Below are positions 2,783-43,954 of a DNA stretch of 64,000 nt, one piece after another. The translations under genes and the position numbers were made by a program. The DNA is from an uncultured Dehalococcoidaceae bacterium. GTDB taxonomy: Bacteria > Chloroflexota > Dehalococcoidia > Dehalococcoidales > RBG-16-60-22. The notes beneath the pieces were generated by a model, which made no database searches, had not been told where the DNA came from, and saw only the letters and a list, made by a program, of their open reading frames with translations. Position 1 is the first letter of the stretch, and each line of letters starts with the position of its first letter. The DNA is taken from contig CAYWZO010000001.1 of the NCBI GenBank assembly GCA_964462865.1, forward strand, positions 17,309 through 81,308, read 5' to 3'.

Positions 2783-4993
2783 CTATTTACTGCCCGGAGC
2801 GATATCGCCGGCGGCAGATGCCGGAGGCACGGGATGCCCGGTATCCGCCCTGGCGGCCTCGATGCCGACACGGCTCACGCTGAAAACACCCTTAACAGCG
2901 TCAATCTTCTTCAGTATCTGGCTCAACTGCGCCAGGCCTTTGGTCTCCAGGGTCATAAACATGGTGATGTTCTGGCCGTTACCGTTGGCCAGACTCACCG
3001 AGGCGATATTTACCTTCTCTTCGGCAACGACGGTAGTGACATCACGCATCAGGCCGACCCTGTCCCAGGCATCCAACTGTATCTTCACCGGGTAAAGCAG
3101 GTCGCTCTGCCCCCACTCCACCGGGATGAGGCGCTCTTTTTCGTCCTCGTTAATGATGTTGTGGCAGTCCGCGCGGTGAATGCTGACGCCGCGGCTGCGC
3201 GTGATGTAGCCGATTATTTTATCGCCGGGGACCGGGTGGCAGCACTGGGCGATGTTGGTCATCAGGTCACCGACGCCCAGCACCTGCACCCCGGAGGGCA
3301 CCTGTCTCAGCGGGGCGACCTCGGCGGCCTGTTCCTCTTCCTCTTCCTGGGCGGCCAGCTTGAGGACAATCTGGTGCGCGGTAACACTGCCGTTACCCAC
3401 CGCTACATGAAAATCATCCAGGTTGGCATAACCAAAAAGCCCGGCCAGGACCTGGCGTTCGGTCTTAATGCCCAGCCTCCGCAGTTCCTTATCCAGTATC
3501 TGCCGACCGCGCTCGATGTTCTCCGCCCGCGTCTGTTTGTTGAACCACTGCCTGATTTTAGTCATGGCGTGCGAGGTCCGGATATATCCCAGGTTGGGAT
3601 TCAGCCAGTCCAGACTGGGCGCCCGGGCCCCCTTGGACGCGATAATTTCCACGACGTCCCCGTTCTTTAACTCATAGTTAAAGGGCACCAGTTTGCCGTT
3701 GACTTTAGCGCCGATGCAGCGGTGCCCCAGGTCCGTATGGACGCGGTAGGCAAAATCGAGAGGGGTAGCGCCCCGGGGCAGGTCTTTGATTTCGCCTTTG
3801 GGGGTATAGACAAATACCTGGTCGATAAAGATATCGGTCTTGACCGACTCTAAAAATTCCTCGGCCCCGGAGAGTTCGCGGTGCCACTCGATGAGCTGGC
3901 GTAGCCAGGCAACCCTGTCTTCGAACATCATGTCCGTCTTGCTGCCTTCTTTATAGCGCCAGTGGGCCGCGACGCCGTACTCGGCGACATGATACATCTC
4001 GCGGGTGAGAATCTGGATTTCCAGCGGGGTGGTGCCGAGGCACATCACCGCCGTGTGCAGCGCCTGGTAGCCGTTCGGCTTGGGATTGGAAATATAGTCA
4101 TCGAAAGTCTCGGGTAGCGGGTGCCACAGGCTATGAATGATACCAACGGCGCTGTAGCATTCCGCCAGATTGCCGACCAGCACCCTCATCGCCAGGAGGT
4201 CATAAATCTCATCGAAGTGCTTGCCGATGGCGGCATACTTTTTCATCTTCTGGTGGATGCTGTAAATATGCTTGGGCCGGCCGGAGATATCCGCCACCAG
4301 GCCCACCTTTTCAAACTCTTTTTTCAGGAGTTCAATCGCCCGGGCGATGAACTTTTCCCGCTGGATCCGTTTGGCGTCGACCAGACTGGCGATTTGCTGG
4401 TATTCCTGCGGAAGTAAATAACGGAAGGAAAGGTCTTCAAGCTGCCATTTCAGTTCCCAGATTCCCAGCCGGTGAGCCAGCGGGGTATATATTTCCAGTG
4501 TTTCCTGGGCGATACTCAATTGCCTCTCCCGGGGCAGGGCGTCCAGGGTGCGCATGTTGTGCAGCCGGTCGGCCAATTTGATAAAGACAACACGCAGATC
4601 CTCGGCCATGGCCAGCAGCATCTTCCTCAAGTTTTCCGCCTGCGTGGCACTGGCGGCGGCGGCGGAAGACGTGAGAGCCACCTTACCAAGCTTGGTGGTA
4701 CCGTCAACCAGCCTGGCTATTTCCTGCCCGAAGCGCGTCTCAATATCGGCGATGGGCAGGCCGGTGTCTTCGGGGATATCATGGAGCAGGGCTGCCGCCA
4801 GCGTACTGGCATCAAACTGAAGTTCGGCGAGGATGTAGGCCGTTTGCAGCGGGTGTTCCAGGAATGGCTCGCCGGACAGTCGTGTCTGTCCGTGGTGTTT
4901 TTCCGAGGCGAACAGATAAGCCGCCTCCACCACCCCTATCTTCTCGGCTGGCAGATAGTTCTTTATTTTCTCCAGAAGTACATTGAATTCCAT
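2783..4993 (-). CDS. rel: Bifunctional (p)ppGpp synthetase/hydrolase (RelA/SpoT homologue)
   Basis: HD hydrolase region (HHGQTRLSGEPFLEHPL...LLHDIPED), synthetase region (HRLGIWELKWQLEDLSFRYL, GRPKHIYSIHQKM, YQALHT), and TGS and ACT-like C-terminus. I place the start at ATG 4993 (MEFNVLLEKIK), not the upstream ATG 5083. Confidence 0.92.
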   Translation of the reverse strand: MEFNVLLEKIKNYLPAEKIGVVEAAYLFASEKHHGQTRLSGEPFLEHPLQTAYILAELQFDASTLAAALLHDIPEDTGLPIADIETRFGQEIARLVDGTTKLGKVALTSSAAAASATQAENLRKMLLAMAEDLRVVFIKLADRLHNMRTLDALPRERQLSIAQETLEIYTPLAHRLGIWELKWQLEDLSFRYLLPQEYQQIASLVDAKRIQREKFIARAIELLKKEFEKVGLVADISGRPKHIYSIHQKMKKYAAIGKHFDEIYDLLAMRVLVGNLAECYSAVGIIHSLWHPLPETFDDYISNPKPNGYQALHTAVMCLGTTPLEIQILTREMYHVAEYGVAAHWRYKEGSKTDMMFEDRVAWLRQLIEWHRELSGAEEFLESVKTDIFIDQVFVYTPKGEIKDLPRGATPLDFAYRVHTDLGHRCIGAKVNGKLVPFNYELKNGDVVEIIASKGARAPSLDWLNPNLGYIRTSHAMTKIRQWFNKQTRAENIERGRQILDKELRRLGIKTERQVLAGLFGYANLDDFHVAVGNGSVTAHQIVLKLAAQEEEEEQAAEVAPLRQVPSGVQVLGVGDLMTNIAQCCHPVPGDKIIGYITRSRGVSIHRADCHNIINEDEKERLIPVEWGQSDLLYPVKIQLDAWDRVGLMRDVTTVVAEEKVNIASVSLANGNGQNITMFMTLETKGLAQLSQILKKIDAVKGVFSVSRVGIEAARADTGHPVPPASAAGDIAPGSK

Positions 4994-5217
4994 AGTTTTC
5001 CGCCCCGGGCCGGAACCCTGGAGCTCTTTTCCCCTGATTAACATAAACACTGGCAATTTCAGTATAGCCCAAAAAACGGGCACTGTAAAATACTGGCTTG
5101 GTCTTTTAATTGCATAAAATCCCCGGTTTTGATATTGTTTTCAGGGATAGATATAAAACGATAGCGACAAAGCCCAGATACGCGATGCCAATTTAACCAT
5201 CCCGGAGGCAGTATATC

Positions 5218-6870
<1,653 letters not shown>

Positions 6871-31144: not shown

Positions 31145-31438
31145 TTTTTTGTACCTCCTTTTTCTTATTTCCACTTAAAGCTTACCACCGGGCGCGGAAA
31201 ACCGGCTTCCGCCGTGATACCTATTTGCTTCCATAGAAAACGCCTAATCTGGCCGGTGTGCCACCGCAACGATATGCCTACCCCGGTATGACGAAAATAA
31301 GTAAAAATACCTACCCGCGACCGAAAAAGACTTCAGGGGGCTGGCCCCCAGCTTATCGCACCAATGGCCTAGTCCAGAAATAGGCCAGTTTGACATCAGA
31401 TATTAAGCCTGTAGCTGGATGGAATGCCCGCTCTTGAA

Positions 31439-31606
31439 TGTTAACCTTGAAAACAGGGAACCTGAAGGAGGCATCTATGGATAGGGAAAGTAACAATAAT
31501 ATCCTCAGTCTCTCGACGGTAGTTAACCAGAGGAACCTGAAGGAGGCATCTATGGAGAAGGAGCACGAAGAAGATTTCCTCAGTATCTCGACGGTACTTA
31601 ACGAGT
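31439..31606 (+). repeat. Two tandem 75-nt units, each carrying SD + ATG + anti-SD
   Basis: ggaacctgaaggaggcatctatgga is identical at 31457-81 and 31532-56. tcctcagtNtctcgacggtaNttaac recurs at 31502-28 and 31577-603. The centres of the two units are divergent. The offset is exactly 75 nt (25 codons). Confidence 0.85.
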
Positions 31607-31890
31607 TGGAAAAAGACCTGTCCAGCCAGACCATTGAGCTCAAGAAAGAGAAAGCGCCCTCCGGAAAGGAGGCCATCCTCAAGATACTCTCCCGGGCGGC
31701 GGATGACCATAAGTTCCTGGCGCGTATGGCCGAGGACCCGGCTAAAGTGCTGAAGGAGTATGACCTGACCGCCGAAGAAAAAGCCGCCCTGATATCGGCA
31801 GACCTGCGCCGGATAGAGTCATGGGTTGGTAAGCTGGACAAAAGACTGGGTACCTGGATATGGTGCCGCCTCCAGCAGGAGAAATGGTAA
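31477..31890 (+). CDS. Hypothetical protein with C-terminal 'KIESWVGKLD...QEKW' module (paralogue of the FdhA tail)
   Basis: A GAAGGAGG SD lies 6-7 nt before ATG 31477; a second equivalent start is ATG 31552. The C-terminal 74 aa align gap-free with the last 74 aa of the FDH catalytic subunit. Confidence 0.7.
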   Translation: MDRESNNNILSLSTVVNQRNLKEASMEKEHEEDFLSISTVLNELEKDLSSQTIELKKEKAPSGKEAILKILSRAADDHKFLARMAEDPAKVLKEYDLTAEEKAALISADLRRIESWVGKLDKRLGTWIWCRLQQEKW

Positions 31891-31907
31891 TTTTAGCGAG
31901 GTCTGGA

Positions 31908-32459
31908 ATGAGTACAATAGCAGCGAAGCAAAGTACCGCAACGACCGGGCAGGATGAAAAAACCATCGCTTCCAAGGTGGACGAAGTCCTGGGAAAATTT
32001 ACCGGCGAGAAGGCCAATCTGATCCCCATTTTACAGCAGGTACAGCAGGTCCTGGGCTACCTGCCGGAAGAGGCTATGAGCCGCATCGCCCGGTTCGTGG
32101 ACGTCCCGGAATGCAGTGTCTTCGGCGTGGCCACCTTCTACGCCCAGTTCCAGCTCTTCCCCAGGGGACGCAACCTCGTCCGGGTATGTCGGGGCACCGG
32201 CTGCTATGTCAAGGGGGCACCGCGCCTGATTGATGAACTGGAGAAACTGCTGGGCATCAAAGAAGGCGAGACGACGCCGGATATGGAGTACACCCTGGAA
32301 ACAGTGGCCTGCTTCGGTTCCTGCGCGCTGGCGCCGGTGATGGTGGTCAACGACAGGGTGTACGGCCGGGTGACGCCGGACAAGGTGAAAGAGATACTGG
32401 GACGGAAGGCCTCCGGTCCAGTCCCGGCGCAGCCTGTAGAGAGCAGCTCCGGTCAGTAA
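31908..32459 (+). CDS. NuoE/HndA-like [2Fe-2S] subunit of NAD(P)-linked formate dehydrogenase
   Basis: LIPILQQVQQVLGYLP and the Cys pattern VCRGTGCYVKG...TLETVACFGSCALAPVMVVND. I place the start at ATG 31908. Confidence 0.88.
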   Translation: MSTIAAKQSTATTGQDEKTIASKVDEVLGKFTGEKANLIPILQQVQQVLGYLPEEAMSRIARFVDVPECSVFGVATFYAQFQLFPRGRNLVRVCRGTGCYVKGAPRLIDELEKLLGIKEGETTPDMEYTLETVACFGSCALAPVMVVNDRVYGRVTPDKVKEILGRKASGPVPAQPVESSSGQ

Positions 32460-32474
32460 GTTCAGGGGGAAACG

Positions 32475-34382
32475 ATGAATTACGAAGAAATTAAAAAGCG
32501 GGCCGCCTCACAATGGAAGGAAATGCAAAAAAGTCTGAAACCCCGGATTTTAGTGGGCACCGGGACCTGCGGCCTGGCCGCCGGAGCCGCTGCCGTACTG
32601 GAGACCCTCCGCCAGGAACTCGCCGAACACAGCCTGGAGGCGGACATCATCCAGGTGGGCTGCATTGGCCTGTGCTACGCCGAGCCCCTGATGGAGGTGG
32701 CTAAACCCGGCCAGCCAAGCGTCTTCTACGGCAACCTCACGCCGGCGCTGGTGACCGAGATTGTACGTGACTATCTCACGGGGGACAATGCCCGGCCGGA
32801 CCTTGCCCTGGGCACCCGGGGCGAAGGCAGCATCGACGGCATCCCCAATCTTTTCGACCTGCCGGTGCTCAAGCCCCAGAGGCGCATCGCCCTGCGTAAC
32901 TGCGGCAACATCGACCCCGCGGACATCAACCACTACCTGGCTAACGAAGGTTACGACGGATTATATAAAACCCTGAAGATGAAGCCCCAGGAAGTCATTA
33001 ACGATATTCAAAAGTCCGGGCTGCGCGGCCGCGGCGGCGCCGGCTTTCCCACGGGGATGAAATGGCAGTTCTGCCATGACGCCCCCGGTTCTCAAAAATA
33101 CATCATCTGCAATGCCGATGAAGGCGACCCCGGGGCCTTCATGGACCGGGCAGTGCTGGAGGGAGACCCCCACGCCGTGCTGGAAGGGATGCTCATCGGC
33201 GCGTATGCCATCGGCGCTTCCGAGGGATATATCTATATCCGGGCCGAGTACCCGCTAGCCATCGAGCGCCTGAAGGTGTCGATAACGCAGATGGAGAAAG
33301 ACGGCTTGCTCGGCGATAATATCATGGGTTCCGGCTTCAATTTCCATATCAAGATAAAGGAAGGCGCCGGAGCCTTTGTCTGTGGTGAGGAGACCGCGAT
33401 GATGGCCTCGATAGAAGGCAGCCGCGGCATGCCCCGTCCCCGTCCCCCTTTCCCTGCCAACTCGGGGCTCTGGGGCAAACCTACCAATATTAATAACGTC
33501 GAGACCTGGGCAAATGTCTCCGCCATCATGCAGAAAGGGGCGGACTGGTACGCCGGCTTCGGCACGGAAAAGAGCCGGGGCACCAAGACCTTCGCCCTGG
33601 TAGGCAAGGTGGTGCGGACCGGGCTCATCGAGGTGCCCATGGGCATTACATTACGCGAGATAATTTACGGTATCGGGGGCGGCATCGCCGAAGGTAAACA
33701 GTTCAAGGCCGTCCAGACAGGGGGTCCCTCGGGCGGCTGCCTGCCGGCCAGCTTCCTCGATTCGCCGGTGGACTTCGAATCGCTGGCGGCCGCCGGCTCC
33801 ATCATTGGGTCGGGTGGCATGGTGGTCATGGACGAGGACAACTGCATGGTGGACGTGGCCCGGTATTTCCTGACCTTCACCCAGCTCGAATCGTGCGGCA
33901 AATGCATCCCGTGCCGCTGGGGCACCAGGCAGATGCTGGACATCCTCCAGGACATCGTCAGCAGCCAGGGCCGGCCGGGAGACATCGATTTGCTCCTGGA
34001 GCTCGGCGACGCCATTAAAAACGGCTCGCTCTGCGCCCTGGGCGGCACGGCCCCCAACCCGGTATTGACCACCATCCGCTACTTCCGTGACGAGTACGAA
34101 GCCCATATCAATGAAAAACGCTGTCCGGCGCTGTCCTGCAAGGCACTTACCACTTACTACATCGATGCTGAAAAATGCCAGGGCTGCGGTATCTGCGCCC
34201 GCGCCTGCCCCGCCGGAGCGATTAATGGCGGTAAAAGGATGGTGCACGTTATTGACCAGGCGAAGTGCATCAAGTGCGGTAGTTGCCGGGAAGCGTGCCC
34301 GGCCAAGTTCGGTGCCGTGGTCAAGACGTCCGGCGGGACTATCGAGGCCCCCGCCGAGCCGGTGCCGGTAGGCGAGGCGTAA
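32475..34382 (+). CDS. NuoF/HndC-like FMN- and NAD(P)H-binding Fe-S subunit
   Basis: GLRGRGGAGFPTGMKW, YIICNADEGDPGAF, ESCGKCIPCR and a C-terminal 2x[4Fe-4S] motif (CQGCGICARACP, CIKCGSCREACP). Confidence 0.92.
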   Translation: MNYEEIKKRAASQWKEMQKSLKPRILVGTGTCGLAAGAAAVLETLRQELAEHSLEADIIQVGCIGLCYAEPLMEVAKPGQPSVFYGNLTPALVTEIVRDYLTGDNARPDLALGTRGEGSIDGIPNLFDLPVLKPQRRIALRNCGNIDPADINHYLANEGYDGLYKTLKMKPQEVINDIQKSGLRGRGGAGFPTGMKWQFCHDAPGSQKYIICNADEGDPGAFMDRAVLEGDPHAVLEGMLIGAYAIGASEGYIYIRAEYPLAIERLKVSITQMEKDGLLGDNIMGSGFNFHIKIKEGAGAFVCGEETAMMASIEGSRGMPRPRPPFPANSGLWGKPTNINNVETWANVSAIMQKGADWYAGFGTEKSRGTKTFALVGKVVRTGLIEVPMGITLREIIYGIGGGIAEGKQFKAVQTGGPSGGCLPASFLDSPVDFESLAAAGSIIGSGGMVVMDEDNCMVDVARYFLTFTQLESCGKCIPCRWGTRQMLDILQDIVSSQGRPGDIDLLLELGDAIKNGSLCALGGTAPNPVLTTIRYFRDEYEAHINEKRCPALSCKALTTYYIDAEKCQGCGICARACPAGAINGGKRMVHVIDQAKCIKCGSCREACPAKFGAVVKTSGGTIEAPAEPVPVGEA

Positions 34383-34422: not shown

Positions 34423-37386
34423 ATGACAATAACTGGCCCGACTGTAGCGGGAGAGCGAAAAACGGGGACAGTATCCCTGATAATAGATGGCGTAAAAGTT
34501 GAGGTGACGGAAGGGACGACGGTGCTGGAAGCGGCCCGACAGGCCGGAATTTACATCCCCACGCTGTGCTATGACCCCGACCTTAAGCCGTACGGGGCCT
34601 GCCGCCTGTGTATCGTAGAAATCGAAAAGATGCGCGGCCTGCCCACCTCCTGTACTACGGCGGCGGCCGAAGGCATGGTCGTCCATACCGAATCGAAGGC
34701 GGTCAACCAGTCGCGCCGCATCACCATGGAACTCATCATGGCCAACCATCACGGCGATTGCCTCACCTGTGCCAAGAACCAGAACTGCGAGCTGCAGACG
34801 GTGGCGCGCTACCTGGGCATCGAGCAGGAGCACTTCGACCGGATGCGGAAGAGCCAGGTGGTGCATCCCGTCGATGATAGCCATCCCGCTTACATCCGCG
34901 ATATGAACAAGTGCATCCTTTGCGGACGCTGCTGGCGCGCCTGCCACGAGATTGCCGGCGTCGAAGCAATCGACGTCGCCTTCCGGGGCAACGCGGCCAC
35001 AGTCAGCACCTTCGGCAATAAACCCATCGCGGAGTCCATCTGCGAGGCCTGCGGCGAGTGCCTGGAGCACTGTCCCACCGGCGCCCTGACACCGAAAAAT
35101 ATCCGGCAGGCGGCGCGTGAAGTGAAAACAATCTGCCCGTACTGCGGCGTCGGCTGCTCCATTTTCCTGGGCGTCCGCGGCAATGAAATCGTCAGCGTCC
35201 GCGGCGATAAAGACAGCCCGGTCAACCGGGGCGGCCTCTGCGTGAAAGGGCGTTTCGGCTTTGACTTCGTCAACCACCCCGACCGTCTGACCAAACCGTT
35301 GATACGGCGGGAGGGCTGGAGCAAGGCCATCGAGGTCAACGGCAATTTCAAAGACATTTTCCGCGAGGCCACCTGGGACGAGGCCCTGGACCTGGTGGCT
35401 GATAGATTGTCCCTGATAAAAGCCGAGCACGGCCCGGACAGCCTCGGCGTTTTAAGCTCCGCCAAGTTCACCAACGAGGAGAACTACCTGGTGCAAAAGT
35501 TCACCCGGGCGGTCATCGGCACCAATAACGTCGACCATTGCGCCCGTCTCTGACATGCTTCTACAGTGGCCGGTGCGGCCGCAGCCTTCGGCGACGGTGC
35601 TATGAGCAACTCCATCGCTGATTTTCAGAAGGCCGACCTTCTCTTCGTCATCGGCTCCAATACCACCGAGTGCCATCCCATTATCGGGCGCTACGTCCGC
35701 CAGGCAGCGCGCTCGGGCACGGCCAAACTCATCGTGGCCGACCCCCGTACCATCCAGCTGGCCAAGAGGGCAGCCATTCACCTGCGCCAGAAACCGGGCA
35801 CCGACGTAGCGCTGCTCAACGCCATGATGAACGTCATCCTCACCGAGGGGCTTGAGGACAAGGAATTTGTCACGGAGCGTACCGAAGGCTTCGAGGAGAT
35901 GGCTGCGACCGTGAAAAAATACACTCCGGAGATGGCCGAGGAAATTACCGGCGTTTCCCGGGCCGATATCATCCGGGCGGCGCGGCTCTTCGCCAATGCG
36001 GAGCGAGCCTGCGTGCTCTACGGCATGGGCATCACCCAGCACACCACCGGCACGGACAATGTCAAAAGCGTCGCCAACCTGCTGATGTTGACCGGTAACA
36101 TCGGCCGCGAGGGCACCGGCTTCAGTCCGCTAAGGGGCCAGAACAACGTCCAGGGGGCCTGCGATATAGGCGCCCTGCCCAATGTCCTGCCCGGCTACCA
36201 GCCGGTGACCAACCCGGAGGCCAGGCAGAAGTTCGAGGCGGCCTGGAACTGTAAAATCAAGGACAAACCGGGCGTGCCCGTGACCGAAATGGTTGAAGCA
36301 GCCATTCGCAAAGACATCCGGGCGATGTACATCGTCGGTGAGAACCCGGCACTGACCGAGCCTTACACCACCCATGCCAGAAAAGCGCTGCAAAAGCTGG
36401 ACTTCCTAGTGGTGCAGGATATCTTCCCCACCGAGACGGCGGTGCTGGCCGACGTGATTTTACCGGCGGCGGCCTTCGCCGAGAAGGACGGCACCTATAC
36501 CAGCACGGAAAGAAGGGTGCAGAAAGTGTGCCAGGCCGTTAGCCCGCCCGGAGAAGCTAAACCGGACTGGGAGATTATCTCGCTGCTGGCGAACAAAATG
36601 GGATACCCCTTCCCTTACCAGACCATCGAGGAAATCAACCTCGAGATGACATCACTCACCCCCATTTACGGTGGTATGCAATTTGACCGGCTGGACAATT
36701 ACGGGCTGCAGTGGCCATGCCGCGATAGGAACGACCCCGGTACCCCAACCCTCCACGCGGGCAAGTTCACCCGCGGGCTGGGCAAGTTCCACGCCGTGGA
36801 GTACCGGCCGCCGGCGGAGTCCGTCTCGCCGGACTATCCGCTTACCCTTACCACCGGCCGGATACTGGAACAATACCACACCGGTACCATGAGCCGCCGC
36901 ACCAAAGTGCTGAACGAGTTGCATCCCAAGGGGGGGATAGATATCCATCCCGAGGATGCCATCAAGCTCGGCATCACGGACGGAGATCTGGTAAGCGTGG
37001 CCTCGGAGCGGGGAAAGATTGAAGCGACAGCCAACATAACCGATACAACTGCGCCCGGACTGGCTTTTATGGCCTTCCACTGGAAGGAATCGCCGGCCAA
37101 CATGCTCACCAACCCGGCGCTCGACCCGGTAGCCAAGATACCGGAGTTCAAGGTATCGGCCGTTAAAGCAGTGCTGGCGGTGCTGGACCGGGCCACCCAG
37201 GACAATGCCTTCCTGGCCCGGCTGGCCGAGAACCCCGCCGAGGCACTGAAGGAATATGACCTGACCCCCAAGGAGAAGATAGCCATCGCCAGCGGCGATA
37301 TTCGTAAAATCGAGTCGTGGGTGGGCAAGCTGGACGAACGCCTCAAGAAATGGCTGGTGGCCCGGCTGGCCCAGGAGAAATGGTAG
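34423..37386 (+). CDS. fdhA: Formate dehydrogenase catalytic subunit, selenocysteine-containing (in-frame TGA at 35551-35553), with a ~70-aa C-terminal extension
   Basis: The two listed ORFs (34423..35553 and 35566..37386) are in the same frame. They join as [30 protein letters not shown], the canonical Sec/Cys active-site context. The N-terminus has 2Fe-2S and 4Fe-4S NuoG-like domains, followed by the CPYCGVGC molybdopterin domain. Confidence 0.9.
35551..35585 (+). promoter_or_regulatory. UGA-Sec codon plus candidate bacterial SECIS hairpin
   Basis: A GC-rich stem-loop gtggccg-gtg-cggccgc (35566-35582) starts 13 nt after the TGA. Confidence 0.5.
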
Positions 37387-37419
37387 CCGGTAAGAGTCAT
37401 CTTTTAATAATAAGCCTAT

Positions 37420-37502: not shown

Positions 37503-38726
37503 ATGGAAGAGATAACCGACAGGCAGGAGTTTACAGAGAAAGACATTCTTTCATCGGGAGTGACGCGGCGGCTCCTGGAAGCCAAGGCGCCCGGGGGACT
37601 ACGCAGCCCCCACGCCTGGATAATCGCGGGCATTTTTATCGTCTTTACCTACATTTACTACGGTGTCCTGAAGTCCTACCATGATATCTATGTCATCATC
37701 TTCTTCTACCCGATGATTTCAGCCGCAATCGTCTACCGCCTCAAGGGAGTGCTCGTCAGCGGTATTGCCTTCCTCGGCGTCATCATTCCCCAGGCCCTTC
37801 TCTTCGGCCACGACCTGGTATCACTGATGAGAACGCTCATCTTCGCCCTTTTTGCCTTCCTCATCAGCGGCCTGGGGGCGACGCTGCTGAACTACATCGA
37901 GCACCAGGTAGAAGCCTATAAAGAGATTGTTTCGCTTAACGAAGAGCTGAATAAATACATCGAGCGCCTGCAAAAGACACAGCAGCAGTTGATTCAGGCG
38001 GCCAAGCTCGGCTCCATCGGCGAGCTTTCAGCGGGGGTGGCCCACGAGCTAAACAATCCACTGGCCGGCGTGCTGGTCTACACCAGGCTGATTAAAGACA
38101 AGCTGGCGAGGGACGCCTATAATAAAGAGCAACTGACGAGCAACCTGGATAAAATAGAATCGGCCATAGAGTACTGTACCGGGATTACTCGCGGTCTGCT
38201 CGATTTTGCCCGGCAGTCACCGCCGCTGCTGCGGCCGGTCACGGTGAGCCGTGCCGTGGATAAGGCCCTGTCTCTGGTGGGGCACCAGGCCAAGATAAAG
38301 CGGATTGAGGTCGTCAGGGAGGAAGCCCCGGCGCTGCCGCTGGTCGTGGCGGACTTCAACCAGCTGGTGCAGGTCATCATCAACCTGGTAGTCAACAGCA
38401 TCGATGCCATGCAGGAAGGCTGCCAGGTGACTATCGGCACCTCTGGGGATAACGGGTGGGTCAGGATACGTGTCAGTGATACCGGCTGCGGCATTACCCC
38501 GGAAAACATGGAAAAGCTGTTCACCCCGTTTTTCACCACGAAGGAAGAGGTCAAAGGCGTGGGGCTGGGGCTGGCGGTATCCTATGGCATCATCGAGCGC
38601 CACGGAGGCAGGATTGAGGTTCAGAGCGAGGCAGGCAAGGGGAGCACCTTTACCGTTGTTTTACCGGCCTGCCAGAGCGAGGAGCCGCCCAAGCCAACCG
38701 AAAACCAGACTAACACTAGTCGTTAA
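37503..38726 (+). CDS. Orphan membrane sensor histidine kinase (HisKA/HATPase_c)
   Basis: Multi-TM N-terminus, coiled-coil linker, H-box GELSAGVAHELNNPLAG, N-box LVVNSIDAM, and G-boxes SDTGCGI and GVGLGLAVS. No cognate regulator is adjacent. Confidence 0.88.
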   Translation: MEEITDRQEFTEKDILSSGVTRRLLEAKAPGGLRSPHAWIIAGIFIVFTYIYYGVLKSYHDIYVIIFFYPMISAAIVYRLKGVLVSGIAFLGVIIPQALLFGHDLVSLMRTLIFALFAFLISGLGATLLNYIEHQVEAYKEIVSLNEELNKYIERLQKTQQQLIQAAKLGSIGELSAGVAHELNNPLAGVLVYTRLIKDKLARDAYNKEQLTSNLDKIESAIEYCTGITRGLLDFARQSPPLLRPVTVSRAVDKALSLVGHQAKIKRIEVVREEAPALPLVVADFNQLVQVIINLVVNSIDAMQEGCQVTIGTSGDNGWVRIRVSDTGCGITPENMEKLFTPFFTTKEEVKGVGLGLAVSYGIIERHGGRIEVQSEAGKGSTFTVVLPACQSEEPPKPTENQTNTSR

Positions 38727-41212: not shown

Positions 41213-41482
41213 ATGAGAGAAAGAAAAAACACCAATCATGATGCCAGGCTGGAAAAACGGAATGCCATCCTGGCAGCCCTGACTAAAGCCAGGGGTGAAA
41301 CGCCTGCCTCCGAGGTTACGGCAGAACCGGATGACGGGCATAACAGCTATTACACGATGAGCAAGGACGAAGTAGACGCCCTGGTTAAAGGTAATATGGA
41401 AAAAATAGAGAGCTGGGTCAACAACCTGGACAGGCGTCACGCGACCTGGCTTTTACGCTGGCTCATTAAAGAAAGCGGGTGA
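41213..41482 (+). CDS. Small hypothetical protein with the third copy of the 'KIESWV..LD' module
   Basis: YTMSKDEVDALVKGNMEKIESWVNNLDRRHATWLLRWLIKESG aligns with YDLTAEEKAALISADLRRIESWVGKLDKRLGTWIWCRLQQEKW. I prefer ATG 41213 to the listed TTG 41174. Confidence 0.55.
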   Translation: MRERKNTNHDARLEKRNAILAALTKARGETPASEVTAEPDDGHNSYYTMSKDEVDALVKGNMEKIESWVNNLDRRHATWLLRWLIKESG

Positions 41483-41542: not shown

Positions 41543-43954
41543 ATGAAAGAAAGTAAAAAGATATTAATTGCAGACGACGAAAGTATTATACGCGACTCCC
41601 TGACGGACTGGCTGACCGACCGCGGTTATAAGGTGGTCACCGCCGAGGATGGCACCAAGACACTGAAAATGTTGACGCAGGAGAACAACTTCGGGGTGGT
41701 TGTCCTGGACGTCCGCATGCCGGGCAAAGACGGTTTCGCGGTTCTGGAAGAAGCCAAAAGACGCCATCCCGGCCTGAAATATGTATTCATCAGCGGGTAC
41801 CCCTCGGTAGATGCCATGACGCGGGGGATAAGGCTGGGGGCCGCCGGTTTCCTGACCAAGCCTTTCGACCCGGAAGAGTTGGAAAAGCTCATCCAGCACG
41901 CCCTGTACGGAGACGAAAAGACCGCCGCGGCAGCCACCGCCGAGTCCGCCCGGGCGGAAGAAGATATCCTGGGGCAGATATCCGGCAAAGAAATAGCGTC
42001 CATGATGGCGGAGAACCGCGTTTTCCAGCCCTCGAAAGAGTTCGCGGAGACGGCCGCGCTGAAGAGCCTTGACGAGTATAAAGCGTTATATAACTGGTCC
42101 ATCAAGAACCCGGAGGAATTCTGGGGCCAGATGGCCAACCAGCTTGACTGGTACAAGAAATGGGACAGGTTCCTGGAGTATGACTTTAAAAATAAGCCCG
42201 AGGTCAGGTACTTTATTGGCGGCAAGATTAATGTCAGCCAGAACTGCCTGGACCGTCACCTCGGTACCTGGCGCAAGAACAAGGCCGCCCTCATCTGGCA
42301 GGGCGAACCCGACGAAGATTCCAGGATTTTTACCTACCAGCAGCTGCACCGCGAGGTGTGCAAGTTCGCCAACGTTTTAAAGAAGCTCGGCGTGAAAAAA
42401 GGCGACACCGTTTCCCTGTATCTGCCGATGATTCCCGAGCTGGCCGTCGCCATGCTGGCCTGCGCCCGCATCGGCGCGGTGCACAGCGTGGTCTTCGGCG
42501 GTTTCAGCGCCGAGGCCCTGCGTGACCGCATCCAGGACGGCCGTTCGAAGATACTCGTCACGTCCAACGGCTACTGGCGCAGCGGCAAACAGATTAACAG
42601 CAAAGCCAACGCCGATACCGCCCTCAAGGACTGCCCCGACGTTGCCAACGTCGTCGTGGTCAAGAGGCTGGCCGGACTTAATGTCTCCATGCAGACCGGC
42701 CGCGACCAGTGGTGGCACGAGCTCATGAACGCCGCCGATATTTCCGACGAATGCGAGCCGGAACCGATGGACGCCGATGCCCCGCTCTTCATCCTTTATA
42801 CCAGCGGCAGCACCGGCAAGCCCAAGGGCGTGGTCCACACGCAGGCGGGCTATCTCCTGCACTGCTACCAGAGCATGAAATGGATATTCGATATTAAAGA
42901 AGAGGACACCTACTGGTGCACCGCCGATGTGGGCTGGGTCACCGGCCACAGCTACATCGTCTACGGCCCGCTGGCCATCGGCGCCGCCAGCCTCATGTTC
43001 GAGAGTGCCCCCAACTACCCCCAGCCCGACCGCGGCTGGCAGATTGTGGAGAAGTACGGCGTCAACGTCTTCTACACCGCCCCCACGCTTATCCGGGCCC
43101 TGATGCGGGAAGGTGAGGAGTGGCCCAACCAGCACGACCTTTCCAGCCTCCGTCTCCTCGGCAGCGTCGGCGAGCCCATCAACCCCGAGGCCTGGATGTG
43201 GTTCCACCGCGTTATCGGCAAGGAAAAGTGCCCCATCGTGGACACGTGGTGGCAGACGGAGACTGGCGGTATCCTGATTACGCCACTGCCCGGCGCTATT
43301 CCCACCAAGCCCGGCTCGGCCACGGTGCCCTTCCCCGGCGTCGAGCCGGTAGTCCTGCGGGAAAACGGGACCGAGGCCGGCGTCAACGAGGGCGGCTGGC
43401 TCTGCATTAAGAAACCGTGGCCCGGCATGATGCGCACCATCTATCGGGACCCCGAGAGATTCAAACAGACCTACTTCAGCAAGTTCCCCGGCTATTACTG
43501 CACGGGTGACGGCGCCCGCAAGGACGCGGACGGTTACTACTGGCTTATGGGCCGCATTGACGACGTGATTAACGTCTCCGGTCACCGCATCGGTACCGCC
43601 GAGGTGGAAAGCAGCCTGGTAGCCCACCCCAAAGTGGCCGAGGCGGCGGTCGTCGGTATGCCGCATTCTCTCAAAGGCCAGGGAATCTACGCTTACGTCA
43701 CCGTCAAGACCGGTATCAAGCCGGATGCGGACCTGGAGAAAGAGCTGAAAAACCACGTCCGCCAGATGATAGGCCCTATCGCCACGCCGGATGTCATCCA
43801 GTTCGCCGACGGCCTGCCCAAGACGCGTTCCGGTAAAATCATGCGCCGGATACTGGTCAAGATTGCCGCCGGCACGACCGATGACCTGGGCGATACCTCG
43901 ACCCTGGCTGACCCGTCGGTGGTGACGACGCTGGTTGCCGGTAAAAAGAAGTAA
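41543..43954 (+). CDS. acs: Response-regulator receiver domain fused to acetyl-CoA synthetase (AMP-forming)
   Basis: Residues 5-120 form a complete REC domain ([33 protein letters not shown]). After an Ala/Glu-rich linker comes a full Acs ([76 protein letters not shown]). Confidence 0.9.

Follow-up and report, generated by a model that had tools for sequence, protein, structure and literature searches.

The window analysed in this study is a stretch of 64,000 nucleotides from an uncultured Dehalococcoidaceae bacterium (contig CAYWZO010000001.1, positions 17,309 to 81,308). It contains an operon for a formate dehydrogenase (FDH), in which a small gene is followed by nuoE-like and nuoF-like genes and by fdhA, the gene for the alpha subunit (Table 1). 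FdhA ends in a helical module of about 70 residues, and the small gene at the head of the operon encodes a free version of the same module. An original prediction, made from the sequence of the window, had proposed that the two copies pair with each other. The strict co-encoding of the two and the conservation of the tail point to a small system for protein docking that is dedicated to formate metabolism.

The C-terminal tail of FdhA

The fdhA frame (34423-37386) is interrupted only once, by a TGA inside the active-site motif ARL-U-HAST. Of the related loci, 36 have TGC or TGT in the corresponding codon column and 18 have TGA; because relatives carry a cysteine codon here, the TGA is read as a selenocysteine (Sec) codon and FdhA as one single protein of 987 residues. 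A hairpin 3' of the TGA, considered as a candidate selenocysteine insertion sequence, folds no better than shuffled sequence (z=-0.06), and the Sec assignment is supported by the Cys/TGA alignment instead. The active site is thus polymorphic for Sec and Cys among close relatives. FdhA matches R. capsulatus FdsA (6tg9, E 1e-233, residues 11-917), and the protein has the features of NuoEF-linked FdsA/FdhF-type enzymes: N-terminal Fe-S domains, domains for molybdenum or tungsten bis-pyranopterin guanine dinucleotide, and the Sec/Cys motif. An identical 606-aa C-terminal open reading frame (ORF) in JGI data bears the annotation 'formate dehydrogenase alpha subunit'.

In a search of all Protein Data Bank (PDB) chains, FDH alpha subunits of solved structure aligned only to FdhA residues ~14 to 916-923 of 987 and stopped 3-26 of their own residues past the end of the alignment. 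In their own numbering the alignments end at 932/958 in FdsA (6tg9), 692/715 in E. coli FdhH (1aa6), 981/995 in the M. extorquens enzyme (7e5z) and 671/674 in the F420-dependent FDH (9t1s); FdhF of the hydrogen-dependent carbon dioxide reductase (7qv7) likewise aligns without the FdhA tail. A module-less relative terminates with ...KIPETKVCAVRVEKLKE and a stop codon. Since both the solved enzymes and this relative end early, the extension of ~69-70 residues is real, and the claim that about 70 C-terminal residues lie outside the standard FDH fold was borne out. The translation of 37162-37389 reads VKAVLAVLDRATQ...LAQEKW followed by the TAG stop codon (37387-37389), as originally quoted. From the last FDH strand the chain runs into helix 1 of the module with essentially no linker. 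The final residue is a tryptophan at the extreme C-terminus (QEKW-stop; 37384-37386), which is invariant in fused and free modules of all classes.

The tail is under strong purifying selection, beyond that on the catalytic core: its mean identity among relatives is 85%, compared with 74% and 71% for the FdhA core, and it is the higher of the two in all 42 orthologues. Many database entries of exactly 105 aa begin at the same MAFHW methionine. One such 'protein' (L001) is accounted for by 56 bp that its fdhA lacks compared with the window (L001 3440-3960), a deletion that breaks the frame.

Family and fold of the module

The tail scores 50.1 bits against the NCBIfam model NF038399 ('Os1348 family NHLP clan'; curated cutoff 40 bits), a membership that the original prediction had missed. 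Its Pfam Frankia_peptide and LigA matches are sub-threshold (LigA, PF07746, 14-15.4 bits; gathering threshold 25.3). A profile of the module family matches SonA, a leader chain of RiPPs (peptides that are ribosomally synthesized and modified after translation), with E 1e-3 and Os1348 (6LK7) with E 0.024. In ECOD, Frankia_peptide, Nif11 and NHase_alpha are grouped in the LigA-like X-group (PMC12353581).

An AlphaFold2 (AF2) model of the tail, built from 68 sequences, is a six-helix domain with a predicted local distance difference test (pLDDT) score of 80. The last helix of this monomer model is the least confident part (pLDDT 69 falling to 52), which is compatible with ordering on a partner. 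In Foldseek searches the model matched the C-terminal LigA-like domain of DesB (TMq 0.68, root-mean-square deviation (rmsd) 2.3 A over 68 columns, probability 0.99), SonA (TMq 0.60-0.62), LigA (TMq 0.57) and, more distantly, Os1348 (6lk7_A; TMq 0.51, rmsd 6.7, probability 0.35). The three-helix core common to LigA, DesB and SonA is present in the tail. No FdsD chain of 6tg9 or 6tga was among its sequence or fold matches. The window holds no gene for a LigB-type partner; the host protein is FdhA.

The fold and family of the tail are therefore already known, and their members are protein-binding domains. Os1348 forms a stable crystal homodimer via helices a1, a4, a5 and a6 (PMC7726476). LigA is the free subunit of LigAB, and DesB is a swap dimer formed through its fused C-terminal LigA-like domain (PMC3962378). 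SonA occurs in a heteromeric complex with SonM, according to the descriptions of the Foldseek matches.

Co-occurrence of the tail and the free module

Loci were mapped with the window proteins and a hidden Markov model (HMM) of the module. A scan of species-representative genomes, one per species, returned 76 loci, overwhelmingly from metagenome-assembled genomes of Dehalococcoidia and a few from Desulfobacterota. Forty-eight of these loci have an fdhA gene with the C-terminal module; together with the NF038399 score, this shows that the extension is no chance sequence. Wherever the region upstream of a tailed FdhA locus is visible, a free module gene precedes nuoE (34/34); conversely, all 35 loci with a free module gene before nuoE and a visible FdhA end have the tail. 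A further 13 metagenome contigs show the same FDH arrangement.

In five loci (L034, L043, L054, L063 and L066) a second NuoE-NuoF-FdhA operon, with ~50% identity and without the tail, lies just upstream of the module-bearing one. L066 is the only one of these in which the region before the tail-less nuoE is visible, and the free module gene is absent there too. In L131 a tail-less FDH (3014-5692) is preceded by a remnant of a free module (380-670) with two in-frame stop codons, which may reflect either decay or sequencing error.

The free module copies in the window

The first free module (31438-31890) has 61% identity to the FdhA tail and scores 50.1 bits against NF038399; the third copy has 32% identity over the full module and 101.6 bits against the family HMM built here, and is only weakly matched by NF038399 (12.4 bits, E 0.13). 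The expectation that the tail recurs as free proteins at 31477 and 41213 was thereby confirmed, and no further module copies were found in the window. That the free copies are encoded in the same operon as FdhA holds for the 31477 copy, in line with the co-occurrence counts above; the 41213 copy lies outside the FDH operon and belongs with a receiver domain (REC) fused to acetyl-CoA synthetase (ACS).

The 3' end of the first module gene overlaps the start of the nuoE-like gene by 31 nt. Orthologues of the free module start at the equivalent of 31552 (e.g., P0017). The segment 31457-31602 is a 75-bp tandem duplication (1.9 copies, 83% match) in which the ATG of this gene is repeated together with its ribosome-binding site and the ~25 initial codons; it creates two in-frame starts, at 31477 and 31552, and close orthologues are single-copy.

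Residues that separate fused and free modules

Module classes were compared in an HMM alignment of 135 modules. Four positions separate the modules fused to FdhA or to the formate channel FocA from those that are free or fused to REC: position 59 is E in the fused class and K in the free/REC class, position 62 is K/R against A/S, position 66 is I/V/T against W, and position 67 is A/S against C. All four lie on one face of the last helix, a6, and an additional K/E swap between the classes occurs at position 2. The class-specific residues thus fall in a1 and a6, which are helices of the Os1348 dimer interface. Overall, FdhA-fused modules share more identity with free modules (0.64-0.70) than with FocA-fused ones (0.57), which indicates that the a6 face shared by the two fused types is not a matter of simple common descent. 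The charge reversal and the exchange of large for small residues give this face the look of a dedicated heterodimer interface. Concerted evolution of fused and free modules within genomes was not seen (0.648 vs 0.641).

The module on FocA, NuoE and receiver domains

The original prediction also did not recognize that the module occurs elsewhere on FocA, NuoE, receiver domains and a helix-turn-helix (HTH) protein. A second type of locus has the order ACS, SatP, free module and FocA fused to a module (10/10 cases), so that every gene for the FocA fusion is directly preceded by a free module gene (10/10). The fused module is the sole element common to the FDH and FocA systems; on FocA it sits on a linker of ~40 residues. 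The N-terminal peptides of the free proteins are class-specific, with ...ISTVLDELEKDL... in the FDH class and ...APTVVPKEG.AGRW... in the FocA class.

HMMER, run in full against 1.84 billion cluster representatives, found the module in only 452 clusters. Besides small free proteins and the FdhA and FocA fusions, the architectures include a module fused to NuoE (P0218, P0221), REC-module and REC-REC-module fusions, HTH with two modules (P0121) and Fer4_22 with two modules; P0121 and P0122 have tandem modules within a single chain. In other lineages a REC-module gene lies directly upstream of a REC-FocA fusion gene (8 loci) or upstream of nuoE-nuoF (L082). On FocA and at the NuoE N-terminus, REC itself can take the place of the module (P0364, P0369, P0378; L127).

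Several observations extend this picture. On non-Dehalococcoidia contigs the REC-module gene comes after genes for a Cache kinase and an NtrC-type regulator and directly before a module-less REC-FocA gene (L078 9001-10942, L081 9001-11117, L083-L085, L101, L133). L127 (1349-6266) has both REC-FocA and REC-NuoE fusions in one locus, with the receiver where Dehalococcoidia carry the module. FocA and the module form a fusion/fission pair, being fused in L086 (6101-7228) and split in L087 (1657-2739) by a stop codon, after which the second gene has a GGAGG ribosome-binding site of its own.

Other features of the window

The NuoF-like subunit has a thioredoxin-like N-terminal part and a C-terminal 2x[4Fe-4S] domain, and in this it resembles bifurcating HydB. 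In several relatives its orthologue is ~1030 aa long, with an added GltD-like tail of Fer4_20 and Pyr_redox_2 (L007 2116-5202). The diaphorase module varies between relatives, while both docking modules stay. The position of the histidine kinase directly after fdhA is kept in L002-L006, L009 and L015. Past it lie a convergent PAS kinase and a LuxR-type regulator, and then the third module. A divergent module gene always precedes the REC-ACS gene, an order found in 9 loci; the REC-ACS fusion suggests direct two-component control of acetate activation. The neighbours of the modules in the window are Rrf2, PALP, HcyBio, NuoE/F, the histidine kinase, the PAS kinase, the LuxR response regulator and REC-ACS.

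Table 1. Features of the FDH locus and its surroundings in the window
Feature	Coordinates	Strand	Basis
Free module gene, first in operon; alternative starts 31477 and 31438; module proper 31666-31887	31552-31890	+	NF038399
NuoE-like [2Fe-2S] thioredoxin-like subunit	31860-32459	+	Pfam PF01257, 3.9e-50
NuoF-like FMN/NAD subunit with extra C-terminal 2x[4Fe-4S] domain	32475-34382	+	Pfam PF01512, PF10589, Fer4
FdhA, alpha subunit of a Sec-type metal-dependent formate dehydrogenase; Fe-S domains at the N-terminus; 987 codons, Sec included	34423-37386	+	
In-frame TGA, active-site selenocysteine codon of FdhA	35551-35553	+	Aligned Cys/TGA codons
Os1348-family/LigA-like module at the FdhA C-terminus, residues 918-987	37174-37386	+	NF038399, PDB alignment ends, AF2, Foldseek
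Histidine kinase gene directly 3' of fdhA	37503-38726	+	Pfam HisKA, HATPase_c
Third, divergent free module gene, outside the FDH operon; alternative start 41174	41213-41482	+	Family HMM
Receiver domain fused to AMP-forming acetyl-CoA synthetase (REC-ACS)	41543-43954	+	Pfam Response_reg, ACAS_N, AMP-binding, AMP-binding_C

Discussion

The explanation that we favor, tentatively, is that the FdhA tail and the free module form a docking pair, and that the small protein is an accessory or regulatory subunit of the enzyme. The tail would then be a six-helix LigA-like docking module of the Os1348 family rather than a peptide precursor, and the small protein at the head of the operon, probably coupled translationally to nuoE, would be the partner version of it. 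Together the two may form a heterodimer resembling the Os1348 homodimer, with the last helix (module residues 59-70) as the specificity surface. The small protein, which has its own conserved N-terminal helix, would thereby join NuoE-NuoF-FdhA as an accessory or regulatory subunit, and the same two-part device would be used on the formate channel FocA. The overall design may be one of a payload plus a docking module, the payload being class-specific N-terminal peptides or, in other lineages, receiver domains. This suggests that the module links the uptake and oxidation of formate with signalling or assembly.

Physical pairing of the modules, and its consequence, is what we infer from several lines of comparison. 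The docking explanation is the most parsimonious one because the fused module is the sole element shared by the FDH and FocA systems and the free gene lies immediately upstream in both. It is further supported by the joint absence of the tail and an intact free gene (L066, L131), by the strong conservation of the tail, by the fact that members of the family (Os1348, DesB, LigA, SonA) are interaction domains, and by the tandem modules within single chains together with the module-NuoE fusions.

Other results weigh against it. Some lineages have a single module for each FocA, which is part of FocA in L086 and has its own gene in L087; others have a REC-module gene beside module-less REC-FocA or FDH genes (L078, L081, L064/L067). 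A second module is thus not required everywhere, and the module may bind a partner that is not a module. Most partners that known LigA-like domains bind are unrelated in fold, such as LigB and SonM. The missing linker means that the module must sit against the cap domain of FdhA, where it could act in cis. An AF2 model of the 606-aa C-terminal ORF of FdhA (51 homologues) was poor (pLDDT 58, predicted template modelling score 0.52) and speaks neither for nor against docking of the tail on the enzyme body. The filament or scaffold formation and the competitive regulation that the original prediction also raised are speculative. The homotypic pairing originally proposed is backed in part, by the co-encoding, the dimer-forming fold family and the complementary-looking a6 face; it gained no backing from a partial Mantel (mirror-tree) comparison of fused and free distances with the FdhA core controlled, which was not significant (r=0.12, p~0.08).

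The absence of a linker fits an alternative in which the tail acts in cis as a lock on the cap domain, in the manner of FdsD, shielding or stabilizing the bis-molybdopterin guanine dinucleotide (MGD) cofactor, and the two modules never touch. The tail would pack on the cap and MGD domains of its own FdhA or, as in DesB, on those of a second FdhA, and the free copy would bind a different subunit such as NuoE. We consider this unlikely, although several points speak for it. In the R. capsulatus enzyme the 71-aa helical FdsD, positioned close to the C-terminus of FdsA, touches both MGD domains and a loop of the cap and 'locks the cap domain' (PMC7171172); the operon of the window lacks an FdsD gene. 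LigA/LigB and DesB are precedents for free and fused LigA-like lids on a catalytic domain, and module-NuoE fusions exist. However, a cis-acting lock leaves unexplained both the free-plus-fused pair on FocA, an unrelated membrane channel, and the same class difference on one helix face in the two systems. The long linker of the FocA-fused module and the lack of an FdsD match in the fold search also speak against it. An equally improbable alternative makes the module a signalling output or sensor, which binds receivers or a ligand such as formate and signals to FdhA, FocA and ACS, any contact between modules being incidental. REC-module and REC-REC-module proteins are common, they precede REC-FocA (8 loci) and nuoE-nuoF (L082), and REC substitutes for the module on NuoE and FocA; P0121, with its HTH and two modules, looks like a one-component regulator, and in the window the gene directly after fdhA encodes a histidine kinase, and REC-ACS has the third module before it. 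Yet the FDH and FocA pairs of Dehalococcoidia have no receiver domain in the operon, no ligand-binding precedent for the fold is known, and one REC-module gene (L080) lies in an unrelated context.

A broader version of the docking explanation, which seems to us quite doubtful, treats the module as a self-associating tag that assembles a formate metabolon, with FocA-fused, FdhA-fused, free and receiver-bearing modules all docking on one another. Such docking would link the channel to the cytoplasmic NuoEF-FDH and to two-component signalling at the post-translational level. The enzyme is elongated, with the NuoE-side module at one end and the FdhA-tail module at the other, so that head-to-tail oligomers might form; lineages such as L127, in which FocA and NuoE each bear a receiver, would reach the same coupling via a different tag. 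The family name, the Pfam label 'Frankia_peptide' and weak similarity to the SonA and Os1348 precursors would instead suit a reading of the free proteins as RiPP precursors with a leader of the nitrile hydratase leader peptide (NHLP) type, and of the FdhA tail as a captured or decoy leader. This reading is highly improbable and was rejected on context and architecture, the context effectively refuting it. No RiPP maturase, protease or exporter gene (radical-SAM, YcaO and methyltransferase genes included) lies beside any module copy in the window. The module stands at the extreme C-terminus, where an invariant tryptophan closes the chain and no core peptide follows. It also forms fusions with FdhA, FocA, NuoE and receiver domains, and in its fused copy the constraint exceeds that on the enzyme core.

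Comparison with known systems shows how the module on FdhA departs from them. Os1348 of Pseudomonas sp. Os17 (6LK7) shares with it the family HMM and, going by the AF2 model, probably a small six-helix all-alpha architecture. However, Os1348 is a free protein of 85 aa whose gene lies, among modification and efflux genes, in a putative bacteriocin cluster. Here the domain is an enzyme tail that has a co-encoded free copy, and genes of those kinds are absent nearby; the similarity is low. LigA and DesB are the best structural matches, and in them too a small helical domain is either free (LigA) or fused C-terminally (DesB). Here, in contrast, free and fused copies coexist, the Pfam LigA score is below threshold, and the partner is a molybdopterin/tungsten FDH or the FocA channel instead of the LigB dioxygenase. 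RiPP leaders of the NHLP, Nif11 and SonA types have a homologous helical core and dock onto a partner protein, as in SonM-SonA, but the module is C-terminal rather than N-terminal and has no core peptide, cleavage motif or maturase. FdsD of R. capsulatus FdsGBAD is likewise an all-helical element of ~70 residues at the C-terminal cap end of an FDH alpha subunit; the analogy is one of position, as FdsD is a four-helix bundle of another family and always a separate subunit. A literature search found nothing describing this domain together with FDH, FocA or Dehalococcoidia, and the module as a conserved tail and free-subunit pair on formate-handling proteins appears to be undescribed.

In sum, a family labelled as RiPP or 'nitrile hydratase leader' peptide would, in this subfamily, be a conserved accessory element of formate metabolism, and many 'Os1348 family NHLP clan' hits in the genomes of anaerobes would need re-annotation. 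As its conservation exceeds that of the catalytic core, the tail is probably required for correct assembly or regulation, which would matter for FDH engineering. The NuoEF-type (possibly bifurcating) FDHs of the abundant sediment Dehalococcoidia would gain a previously unrecognized subunit, and the module would give a testable handle on the coupling of formate uptake, formate oxidation and two-component signalling.

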